Under the pieces are notes generated by a model, which saw only the letters and a program-made list of their open reading frames with translations, was not told where the DNA came from and searched no databases. A stretch of 6,334 nt of DNA. Source: a virus (lineage: Duplodnaviria; Heunggongvirae; Uroviricota; Caudoviricetes). The stretch is from the IMG/VR virus record IMGVR_UViG_2734482594_000010. One strand, written 5' to 3'. This document shows positions 898 to 4,636 of this stretch, piece by piece. How positions within the stretch are numbered: position 1 is the first letter of the stretch; each line of letters starts with the position of its first letter. The position numbers were made by a program, and so were the translations under genes.

Positions 898-1016
898 TGC
901 AGCGGGTGCTTGAGGCTATCTGTCTCAGGCATGAACACCAAAAGGCAGATAGAGAAAAGCCCCAGTTAACATTACGCGTCCGGCAAGACGCTTAACATTA
1001 ATCTGAGGCTCAATCT

Positions 1017-1229
1017 ATGAACGGCAAATCTAGGTTAGCCTCTTACGTGCCGAAAGGCAAGGAGAAGCAGGCTATGAAGCAGCAAAAGGCGATGTTAATC
1101 GCCCTGATCGTCATCTGTTTAACCGTCATAGTGACGGCACTGGTAACGAGGAAAGACCTCTGCGAGGTACGAATTCGAACCGGCCAGACGGAGGTCGCTG
1201 TCTTCACAGCTTACGAACCTGAGGAGTAA
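1017..1229 (+). CDS. mok: mok-like frame: in-frame upstream extension of hok (70 aa), expected to couple translation of hok
   Basis: ATG 1017 in frame with hok. No alternative-frame ORF overlaps hok (frame +1 has stops at 1018, 1036, 1075; frame +2 has no start). Lengths 70/51 aa match the known Mok/Hok pairing. Confidence 0.5.
   Translation: MNGKSRLASYVPKGKEKQAMKQQKAMLIALIVICLTVIVTALVTRKDLCEVRIRTGQTEVAVFTAYEPEE
1074..1229 (+). CDS. hok: Hok/Gef-family type I toxin, 51 aa (MKQQKAMLIALIVICLTVIVTALVTRKDLCEVRIRTGQTEVAVFTAYEPEE), HokD/RelF-like
   Basis: Translation matches the Hok/Gef family signature (N-terminal TM helix, conserved TRKDLCEV-IRTGQTEVAVF-AYE) as recalled. ATG 1074 preceded by AAGGAGAAG. 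Confidence 0.85.
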   Translation: MKQQKAMLIALIVICLTVIVTALVTRKDLCEVRIRTGQTEVAVFTAYEPEE

Positions 1230-3246: not shown

Positions 3247-4064
3247 AACTGGAAGATTTACCGAAATACTACTCCCCAAAATCCCCCGGCCTGACTGATG
3301 CATCGGCCTCAACGTCGAAAGATGCGCTGAGTATCACTGATGTGATGGCCGCGCAGGGCATGACACAGAATCGGGCTGAGATGGGGGTTTCTGCGTTCCT
3401 TGGGAAAATGGGCATTAGTATGAATGACAGAGAGCGGGCAACAGAATTGCTGACAGAATATGCACTCAGTCGGTGTGATCGCGTGGCGGCGTTAAGAAAA
3501 CTCCCGGCAGAAATAAAACCGGCAGTGATGCGTATTATGGCTTCGTATGCGTTTGAAGATTATGCCCGTAGCGCGGCGAGCAAAAAACAGTGCCCCTGCT
3601 GTCACGGAAAAAAATTTATTGAAAGCGAGGTTTTTACAAACAAGATCCAGTATCCGGATGGTAAGCCGCCGGTATGGGCAAAGTGTACGAAAGGTGTGTA
3701 TCCGTCTTACTGGGAAGAATGGAAAAAAGTCAGGGAGGTGGTAAAAGTTGCCTGTCCGGAGTGTGGCGGAAAGGGTGAGGTTTCCACCGCCTGTAAGGAT
3801 TGCCGTGGGCGTGGTGTCGCCATTCATCGTGAAGAGTCGGTAAAACGTGGTATGCCTGTTATCAGAGACTGCCAGCGTTGTGGTGGTCGTGGCTATGAAA
3901 GACTACCATCAACGGAGGCATTTAATGCTATATGCGAGGTGACAAACCAGATAACACGCGCGTCATGGGAAAAAACAGTTAAGAAATTTTATGATGCGCT
4001 GGTGACCCGGTTTGATATTGAAGAAGCATGGGCTGAGCGGCAGTTAAAAAAGGTAACTAGGTAA
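3243..4064 (+). CDS. Putative late-gene antiterminator Q (Qin QuuQ-like, 273 aa) with four CxxCxGxG-type Zn-finger repeats
   Basis: ATGA overlap with rusA. Lies immediately upstream of a lambda-PR'-like promoter with pause element and tR'. N-terminus MKLEDLPKYYSPKSP... resembles Qin-type Q as recalled. Repeats CPCCHGKK, CPECGGKG, CKDCRGRG, CQRCGGRG. Confidence 0.7.
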   Translation: MKLEDLPKYYSPKSPGLTDASASTSKDALSITDVMAAQGMTQNRAEMGVSAFLGKMGISMNDRERATELLTEYALSRCDRVAALRKLPAEIKPAVMRIMASYAFEDYARSAASKKQCPCCHGKKFIESEVFTNKIQYPDGKPPVWAKCTKGVYPSYWEEWKKVREVVKVACPECGGKGEVSTACKDCRGRGVAIHREESVKRGMPVIRDCQRCGGRGYERLPSTEAFNAICEVTNQITRASWEKTVKKFYDALVTRFDIEEAWAERQLKKVTR

Positions 4065-4069
4065 CAAGG

Positions 4070-4109
4070 TTGATTTTTCCGGAATCTGTGGTAAATTCGT
4101 CATAACGAT
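4070..4109 (+). promoter_or_regulatory. Late promoter PR' with Q-utilisation region: -35 TTGATT (4070..4075), 16-bp spacer, extended -10 TGgTAAATT (4089..4097), promoter-proximal sigma70 pause element AACGAT (4104..4109)
   Basis: The -10 TAAATT and the AACGAT placed 6 nt downstream are the same elements and spacing as in phage lambda PR' (established). Starts 6 nt after the Q stop. Confidence 0.7.
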
Positions 4110-4144
4110 GGGCGTTTTATGCCTGACGTTAGAAGAGTTTCTAC

Positions 4145-4168
4145 AACCCGCCGCCGAGCGGGTTTTTT
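4145..4168 (+). terminator. tR'-like rho-independent terminator (stem CCCGC/GCGGG, loop CGCCGA, then T6)
   Basis: Hairpin 4147..4162 followed by TTTTTT 4163..4168, about 60 nt downstream of the predicted PR' start. Confidence 0.65.
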
Positions 4169-4288
4169 ATGACTGAAATCGCGTCAGTACAGTAAACGCG
4201 CTGGTGGCGGTGAATACCTGTCTTTCAGCTTGCTGGCTTTTTCGACAAGAGTTATTGGTGTGTCACGTTAACCGGAAAAGGAAAAGAC

Positions 4289-4486
4289 ATGCTAAAACAG
4301 CAGGATATGACAGAAACCGCCAGAGTGGTGTTTAATGAATTAAGCGTTACCGAACCGGCGACAGTCGGGGAGATAGCGCAGAATACTTACCTTTCACGCG
4401 AACGCTGCCAGTTAATACTGACCCAGCTGGTTATGGCGGGTCTGGCAGACTATCAGTTCGGTTGTTACAGACGCCTTCCGCAGTGA
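4289..4486 (+). CDS. Small putative DNA-binding protein (65 aa) with helix-turn-helix / winged-helix-like segment (PATVGEIAQNTYLSRERCQLILTQLVMAGLADYQ)
   Basis: ORF track entry. SD-like AAGGAAAAG upstream of ATG 4289. Stop codon lies inside the following terminator hairpin. Confidence 0.5.
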   Translation: MLKQQDMTETARVVFNELSVTEPATVGEIAQNTYLSRERCQLILTQLVMAGLADYQFGCYRRLPQ

Positions 4487-4496
4487 AGGCTTTTTT
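4473..4496 (+). terminator. Rho-independent terminator (stem GCCTTC/GAAGGC, 6-nt loop, T6) overlapping the stop of the 4289..4486 ORF
   Basis: Perfect 6-bp stem 4473..4478 / 4485..4490 followed by TTTTTT 4491..4496. Confidence 0.6.
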
Positions 4497-4513
4497 ATTT
4501 GTGGTAAATGGGC

Positions 4514-4544
4514 GGCTGGTGGGTGTTAGGGGCACCCACCAGCC
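4514..4544. promoter_or_regulatory. Perfect 12-bp inverted repeat GGCTGGTGGGTG-(7 nt)-CACCCACCAGCC in the leader of the methyltransferase gene; candidate operator or RNA stem-loop
   Basis: Arms 4514..4525 and 4533..4544 are exact reverse complements. No T-run follows, so not a classical terminator. Confidence 0.4.
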
Positions 4545-4636
4545 ATCTGCTCATGCGTTGGGTTCACAAGCAAACCTCAGGCCCACTGCTTTGCGCAAAA
4601 GCAGAATGAGCCTATCAGAGACAGGCTTAATGATCC

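Follow-up and report, generated by a model that had tools for sequence, protein, structure and literature searches.

A conserved structured leader RNA with two competing predicted folds precedes M.EcoGII-type methylase genes in lambdoid prophages

Competing mRNA folds, formed in a set order during and after transcription, control translation of the toxic gene in hok/sok. In phage Mu, the start codon of mom is held in an inhibitory mRNA structure until Com acts (PMC6483171, PMC3299994). M.EcoGII-type enzymes, which methylate adenines in any DNA context, are harmful if constitutively made and are silent in lysogens (PMC5778455). Here, we describe a leader RNA directly before a methylase gene of this type, found in the window, by which we mean the whole 6,334-nt stretch of Caudoviricetes DNA that was analysed (IMG/VR record IMGVR_UViG_2734482594_000010).

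The leader shares features with several known systems and differs from each. It resembles the Mu com-mom TIS in that a harmful late DNA-modification gene would be silenced by a buried start codon and would need an activating event, and a Vibrio form of the leader shares its operon with a Com-like zinc-ribbon gene and the methylase. Unlike the Mu element, which is one hairpin beside a Com-binding hairpin, the leader spans ~140 nt, comprises five helices, has two global folds and shows no sequence similarity to it. The window holds no Com-like ORF, and in Vibrio, where the leader precedes com and covers its start, the leader cannot be what Com acts on. With translational riboswitches (SAM-II, SAM/SAH, preQ1 and TPP thiM), the leader has in common a multi-helix junction, conserved unpaired bases, a likely pseudoknot, an alternative pairing predicted to hide the ribosome-binding region, and a sensor-like core joined to different downstream pairings in different lineages. 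Unlike these, it precedes genes for phage DNA-modification enzymes rather than metabolic genes, and neither the + strand of 4497–4640 nor any of eight related loci matched an Rfam 15 family at E up to 1; the sole Rfam overlap of the leader was a minus-strand P26 match whose 24.2 bits fall short of the threshold of 36. Like hok-type mRNAs, the leader has competing folds over a toxic gene, and a hok/sok locus lies in the same window (904–1229), but the leader has no evident antisense RNA partner or 3' processing step and is unrelated in sequence and architecture.

The window covers the late-regulatory region of a lambdoid prophage. Its order is hok/sok, a DUF968-like gene, a RusA gene, Q, PR' and tR', followed after tR' by a 65-aa ORF, a second terminator, the methylase, a tRNA and a run of Ns that is overlapped by an STnc100 match. 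The features around the leader are as follows.

Ending at 4064: antiterminator Q (PF03589), 273 aa, with a DnaJ-type zinc-finger region
4070–4097, + strand: candidate PR', read from the sequence as TTGATT, 16 nt, TAAATT
4145–4170, + strand: tR', from the terminator scan; an equivalent terminator is annotated in SfV
4289–4486, + strand: 65-aa ORF, winged helix weakly resembling TrmB (Pfam TrmB E 0.0026, short of the family cut-off)
4473–4496, + strand: intrinsic terminator after the 65-aa ORF, ending 4 nt before the leader, from the terminator scan
4497–4636, + strand: structured leader RNA, beginning with the 5' tail and ending immediately ahead of the methylase ATG (covariance model R1, 139.4 bits, E 1.5e-34)
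4637–5695, + strand: DNA methyltransferase, 352 aa, beta-class N6_N4, M.EcoGI/GII type (PF01555, E 7.9e-42)

tR' lies ~50 nt past the candidate PR', forming a short transcription unit of the 6S/StxS type downstream of Q, and the PR'/tR' region (4070–4170) is the likely source of the leader-bearing transcript. The 65-aa ORF has 48% identity to an ORF in the same position in a Providencia phage (L003, 1800–1994) and is found together with the leader from E. coli to Providencia; it is absent from phage LLS and from the Vibrio loci.

Several other elements of the window are RNA-like or structural. In the hok/sok-type toxin-antitoxin locus at 904–1229, an Rfam sok match (904–1079, 112 bits, E 9e-26) overlaps the start of a 70-aa Hok-like ORF (1017–1229), right behind which a weak IsrK-like match (1238–1319, 25.7 bits, below the gathering score) ends in a terminator-like hairpin. 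Downstream of the methylase, a tRNA with anticodon CAT lies within 5736–5895, its equivalent being annotated as ileZ in phage P27, and a second tRNA-like start at ~5822 runs into the 41-base N-run at 5855–5895. The N-run also masks the 5' part of an STnc100 sRNA match (5867–6049, 69.8 bits), of which a second, weak copy lies at 6088–6276. The ends of the window are linked by a perfect 64-nt inverted repeat (1–64 and 6228–6291), which may be real, as an inverted duplication, or may have arisen in assembly at the contig ends.

The methylase carries DPPYF near its N-terminus and FFMGLGS near its C-terminus, which, judged by sequence, places it with the M.EcoGI/GII-type enzymes and predicts non-specific activity. 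Its 5' end shares 94.8% DNA identity with phage 1720a-02, a phage named as carrying a very similar MTase (PMC5778455). Using a degenerate pattern, we found at least 120 leader loci in viral contigs; among the matches listed, the next ORF belonged to this methylase family in 110 of 121 motif instances, with the leader directly before the start codon. The exceptions among these matches were C5-cytosine methylases (PF00145), ParB_N proteins, including one 488-aa ParB-methylase fusion, and holins ~90 nt away, all of them at the head of a late or lysis operon downstream of Q. At some Vibrio loci, the block is followed by a Mu Com-like zinc-ribbon ORF and then the methylase; the Com match, seen in Vibrio loci only, is PF10122 at E 0.0016, below the family cut-off.

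The leader is conserved as a unit with the methylase. In the 200 nt before the methylase start of annotated phages, there is one conserved block, running from (C)TGTG(A/G)AAATGGGCGG to the ATG, and it was kept in 75 of 75 diverse loci. When phage genomes were compared by BLAST, matching to phage LLS and the Providencia phage, whose upstream genes are unrelated or diverged, began at window position 4506, while in other loci, which have the upstream ORF in common, matching breaks off at ~4526; because matching starts and stops at such mosaic breakpoints, the block belongs to the methylase. In a homologue search with one genome per species, ~60 species, ranging from Escherichia to Vibrio, had the block ahead of a methylase homologue; among them were Salmonella, Klebsiella, Enterobacter, Citrobacter, Mixta and Rosenbergiella as well as Erwinia, Providencia, Proteus, Morganella, Serratia and Gilliamella. 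Across Enterobacterales, Morganellaceae, Gilliamella and Vibrio, it thus accompanies an M.EcoGII-type methylase regardless of the upstream gene. The leader is present in 2707 of 5426 complete E. coli genomes, in up to 8 copies per genome, and in 58 cultured phage records, many of them Stx2 phages; P27 is an example of a phage in which it has Q on one side and the tRNA and stx genes on the other.

In most enteric loci, a hairpin ends 12–17 nt upstream of the leader. Control windows were not clearly different in this respect, and we rejected a rule that the leader always follows a terminator, which is phylogenetically linked and fails in Morganellaceae. No description of the leader was found in the literature searched, a full-text search with the arm sequences returned unrelated papers only, and the Pas and STnc100 preprint makes no mention of the region. 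Two described candidates were set aside: the anti-sRNAs AsxR and AgvB, which lie 3' of moron coding sequence (PMC4104026), and the Koudelka prophage (PA8) rRNA methyltransferase with its PNB-2 partner (PMC10810198), an MT-A70 gene distinct from this one and located at the opposite phage end. The leader is thus apparently an undescribed and unannotated new family among structured cis-regulatory leaders.

To characterize the structure of the leader, we drew five helices (fold A) from the alignment and built covariance model R1 on them. The elements of this fold are listed below in window coordinates.

4500–4504, + strand: 5' tail UGUGG, candidate pseudoknot strand with UCACA at 4564–4568
4505–4508, + strand: linker UAAA, the second half of a decamer (4500–4509, discussed below), of variable length, 2–4 A-rich bases
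4509–4513 and 4581–4585, + strand: P1, UGGGC with GCCCA, 100% paired in 75 sequences; its first base, 4509, is the last base of the decamer
4514–4544, + strand: P2 hairpin, which is a 12-bp inverted repeat with a 7-nt loop, 94% paired
4548–4555 and 4565–4572, + strand: P3 hairpin, UGCUCAUG with CACAAGCA, its loop carrying G(G/A/U)UCAC
4586–4604, + strand: P4 hairpin, which is a second palindrome, CTGCTTT-GCGCA-AAAGCAG, 85% paired
4607–4613 and 4623–4629, + strand: P5 hairpin, UGAGCCU with AGGCUUA, 84.5% paired

Model R1 found all 75 non-identical leaders on the + strand, at E values from 1e-12 to 1e-44, and on the minus strand of the same 75 its best E was 0.016 or worse, none of it significant. 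In the model-based alignment, 87% of fold A cells were paired, versus 30–45% with partners slid, and the covariation score was 0.160 versus 0.05–0.08. Compensatory changes were seen at 22 of 37 pairs, compared with 13.6 ± 1.5 in shuffles (none of 500 reached 22) and 7–12 with partners slid, and RNAalifold recovered P1 and P2 independently. All of this evidence is computational, from alignments that are partly model-fitted and sequences that are phylogenetically related.

The helices also show compensation one by one. P1 has two independent compensatory changes, G-C to A-U in L017 and C-G to G-C in L076. Compensatory changes occur at 8 of 12 pairs in P2, where G-U pairs exist on the + strand only, at 4 of 6 pairs in P4, whose position holds a hairpin in all lineages, and at 3 of 6 pairs in P5. 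In P3, the outer pairs covary, one pair varying between U-A (25 sequences), C-G (22), A-U (11) and U-G (4), another between G-C (65) and A-U (5), and a third between U-A (54) and C-G (14). The tail, with consensus (C/U)UGUG(A/G), is complementary to UCAC(A/G) in the P3 loop; this candidate pseudoknot was 91.8% paired in register and 28–50% when slid, with a G-C to A-U change in Vibrio and CGUGA/UCACG in the holin-type loci. An RNA from the minus strand folds well on its own (z = −5.4), but we rejected it, there being no significant model matches and G-U pairs favouring the + strand. The 5' untranslated region of the methylase thus contains covarying sense-strand structure, and we are confident that 4497–4636 is a structured sense-strand RNA.

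The same strands can form a second set of pairings (fold B), which reaches the methylase start.

4508–4513 and 4549–4554, + strand: alt-P1, AUGGGC with GCUCAU, extending the P2 hairpin and present in the minimum free energy (MFE) fold of the window
4561–4572, + strand: segment X, GGUUCACAAGCA, the P3 loop and 3' strand, pairing with Y
4624–4636, + strand: segment Y, GGCUUAAUGAUCC, the P5 3' strand and UGAUC, sequestered by X
4631–4639, + strand: initiation region, UGAUC, one base and the methylase AUG, with no canonical Shine-Dalgarno (SD) sequence

UGAUC is complementary to GAUCA beside the anti-SD in the known 3' end of 16S rRNA, and may act as a weak SD; GATC(C/T)ATG is almost invariant in enteric leaders. 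Besides X:Y and alt-P1, fold B pairs the P1 3' strand with the P5 5' strand. A second partner thus exists for every strand of P1, P3 and P5, and folds A and B are mutually exclusive. The MFE structure of the window lacks P1 and P3 and contains AUGGGC:GCUCAU and the long-range helix; for six diverse leaders, as for the window, fold B comes out as the MFE structure or close to it. Folds A and B are nearly equal in energy: over the 75 leaders, the median values were −47.9 kcal/mol for fold A, −51.8 for fold B and −53.9 for the MFE, with fold B lower than fold A in 58 of 75 by nearest-neighbour energies, a balance that is only rough because pseudoknot and tertiary energies lie outside the model.

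Fold B pairings covary as well. In the alignment, which was fitted to fold A, the helices specific to fold B were 90.3% paired versus 20–40% when slid, with a covariation score of 0.187 versus 0.013–0.074 and compensatory changes at five pairs. Their count of compensatory pairs was no better than in the shuffle control (7 versus 6.7), and much of the covariation comes from a few deep splits, chiefly Enterobacteriaceae versus Morganellaceae. Alt-P1 was 97.8% paired over the 75 leaders, with one-sided changes only and 10 mismatches; we rejected it as the sole true partner of AUGGGC, as the double changes in L017 and L076 fit P1 and a G58-to-A change is compensated in P3 and not in alt-P1. X:Y was stronger than X paired with random windows of the same mRNA, with a median empirical fraction of 0.044 and a fraction of at most 0.05 in 50 of 93 leaders, and five leaders (L037, L204, L226, L234 and L253) had no good X:Y pairing. 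Most relatives have a stronger X:Y than this window, whose weaker value of −8.7 kcal/mol (empirical fraction 0.18) is explained by a U at position 4563, where relatives have G or A. The most telling case is that of distant lineages whose downstream gene or start context is different: in the Vibrio com, Gilliamella, C5-methylase and ParB-methylase groups, the loop reads GUCAU(R)A and pairs in the MFE with the start codon region itself, UAUGAC, AUGACC or GUGACU. In each case, the alternative pairing, which many lineages have as their MFE, is predicted to occlude the ribosome-binding region or the start codon, as an expression platform does.

On balance, we think it probable that the Q-dependent late transcript includes a bistable leader through which translation of a toxic DNA-modification gene is controlled. 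We infer the control of translation by the switch, its default state and its trigger as follows. The leader would be made when Q-modified RNA polymerase starting at PR' reads through tR' and the 4473–4496 terminator; transcripts terminated there would end in the U-tract at ~4491–4499 and lack the leader. In fold A, a three-way junction of P1, P2 and P3 would form beside hairpins P4 and P5, the 5' tail UGUGG would probably lock the P3 loop in a pseudoknot, and UGAUC-C-AUG (4631–4639) would be left single-stranded. In fold B, pairing of X (4561–4572) with Y (4624–4636) would bury the ribosome-binding region. During transcription, the alt-P1 partner (4549–4554) would emerge before the P1 partner (4581–4585), and this order together with the energies suggests that fold B, with translation off, is probably the default. 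Such a default would keep a non-specific toxic adenine methylase untranslated unless fold A is stabilised, which could be brought about by a ligand, by a protein of the phage or the host, or by folding kinetics; the product of the co-conserved 65-aa winged-helix ORF is one candidate protein trigger. The reported toxicity of M.EcoGII-type enzymes and their silence in lysogens (PMC5778455) fit a leader that is off by default.

The alternative that survives best is that the conserved core serves elsewhere, in mRNA stabilisation or processing, in self-cleavage or in polymerase passage through the late operon, and that its pairing with the start is secondary or coincidental; we consider this unlikely. 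It draws on the holin-type loci (L211, L278, L294, L297, L299 and L302), where the core is intact ~90 nt upstream of holin genes, with no adjacent ORF and no X:Y pairing to their starts, so the core may act beyond hiding the methylase start. These loci, however, hold a conserved X partner of their own, AUUUGUUC, 34 nt downstream and complementary to the 3' part of X, CGAACAAA, a pairing that may, from its sequence, be a different expression platform. The core always heads a lysis or late operon downstream of Q, usually right behind a terminator hairpin, as a role in the operon at large would have it, but the terminator adjacency is not universal and is absent in Morganellaceae. Conservation is high at its junction nucleotides, a trait of ribozymes and of RNAs that bind proteins, yet no Rfam ribozyme or antiterminator matched at E up to 1. 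Furthermore, at least six divergent lineages and four different downstream genes have X paired with Y or with the start codon, though the bases involved differ. Conserved partners in fold B exist for all strands of fold A, and without a switch this would be difficult to account for.

A second alternative places a promoter here. A sequence-only reading of this stretch had seen in the repeated decamer of the PR' −10 region a possible weak promoter or a relic of late-promoter duplication, and in the stretch as a whole a regulated entry point into the methyltransferase gene. We confirmed the elements that it had listed: the decamer TGTGGTAAAT occurs at 4087–4096 and 4500–4509 and nowhere else in the window; the terminator at 4473–4496 is a GCCTTC-CGCAGT-GAAGGC hairpin followed by TTTTTT; the 12-bp perfect inverted repeat is formed by GGCTGGTGGGTG (4514–4525) and CACCCACCAGCC (4533–4544) with a 7-nt spacer; and the second palindrome, CTGCTTT/AAAGCAG at 4586–4604, makes a 7-bp hairpin. 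A regulatory entry into the gene was borne out too, in that the block from ~4500 to the ATG at 4637 follows the methylase despite a differing upstream gene. The remainder of the proposal, in which TGgTAAATg (4502–4510) is a weak extended −10 or PR' relic that gives the methylase its own start and the palindromes are repressor or activator operators, appears very improbable.

In favour of this promoter are the ten bases that it shares with the PR' −10 region, the TG one base ahead of the TA-rich hexamer TAAATG, the small winged-helix protein encoded immediately upstream, and the passable extended −10, TGTGAAAAT, that 23 of the 75 related leaders carry at the decamer site. Compared with an extended −10 sigma-70 promoter such as lambdoid PR' (A2, T6 and TG one base upstream), however, the hexamer has G in place of the conserved T at position 6 (TG-g-TAAATG), lacks a −35 and has no Q-binding or pause context, and a promoter scan of 3900–4900 returned no promoter-like site. 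The element differs in sequence and spacing in 52 of the 75 relatives, the spacing shifting by 1–2 nt, and it overlaps paired RNA: a start ~7 nt downstream of the hexamer (~4517) would fall inside P1/P2 and remove the P1 5' strand, whose pairing has two compensatory changes in its favour. The window contains 52 exact direct 10-mer pairs, versus ~20 in mononucleotide shuffles, and the decamer had at least two matches at up to one mismatch in 11 of 200 shuffles; by these sequence counts, the repeat is at chance level and its match to PR' is a chance one. Relatives read CTGTGAAAATG, TGTGGAAATG, TGTGAAATG or GCAATGAAATG at the decamer site, so the decamer is not conserved; it equals the PR' sequence in a single E. 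coli clade, by coincidence, and the likeness to PR' ends at the decamer, so that nothing points to duplication. As for the palindromes, both are far beyond chance, being conserved and covarying over dozens of genera, but their arms change by compensatory pairs and by G-C to G-U steps that keep pairing on the + strand only, and the minus strand yields no significant model match, which is unlike the evolution of a DNA operator.

Translation of the 33-aa ORF at 4508–4609 (MGGWWVL...) as a leader peptide that couples to or attenuates methylase expression is barely credible: its ATG at 4508 is almost invariant and in the window and some relatives its stop is a conserved TGA that lies 27 nt ahead of the methylase ATG, but ORF length varies from 3 to 45 codons, 25 of 75 leaders have a stop after 7 codons, single-base indels shift the frame, substitutions track base-pairing rather than codon periodicity, and the ATG bases are required for P1 and alt-P1.

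Orthologues of the methylase also occur behind other upstream regions. In Vibrio, Aliivibrio and Psychromonas, twelve loci (L075, L077–L084, L087, L089 and L090) carry, ~180 nt upstream of the methylase start, another conserved leader with a structure of its own: a closing helix, GCCUUGAGU/AUUCAAGGC, plus two hairpins that covary. A LexA-box-like CTGT-N8-ACAG lies ahead of this other leader, which has no Rfam match. In Shewanella and Vibrio ichthyoenteri (L086 and L088), a LexA-box-like site is followed by a com-like zinc-ribbon ORF and the methylase, with no leader motif. With this leader-less com-like arrangement, the methylase family would be under at least four control arrangements.

Returning to the bistable leader, its trigger could be a small molecule, although we hold it doubtful that the leader is a ligand-binding riboswitch. 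We would also suggest, tentatively, that the core (tail and P1–P4) could be the sensor of a new riboswitch class or of a protein-responsive switch, combined with interchangeable expression platforms and responding to SAM/SAH or to a late-infection cue. The genes gated by it would be M.EcoGII-type methylases, C5-cytosine methylases, ParB-methylase fusions and com, and the presence of four unrelated DNA-modification gene families behind the leader makes a shared signal plausible, which would be of wider interest for phage anti-restriction biology. If the sensor reading is true, many Shiga-toxin phages would also have the switch on the late transcript that includes stx. Though very common, the leader lacks annotation, and it would guard a gene that is harmful if expressed at the wrong time. 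If the two-state model holds, it would provide a testable answer to how the methylase stays silent in lambdoid prophages despite read-through, and the leader would represent a new family of switching RNAs.
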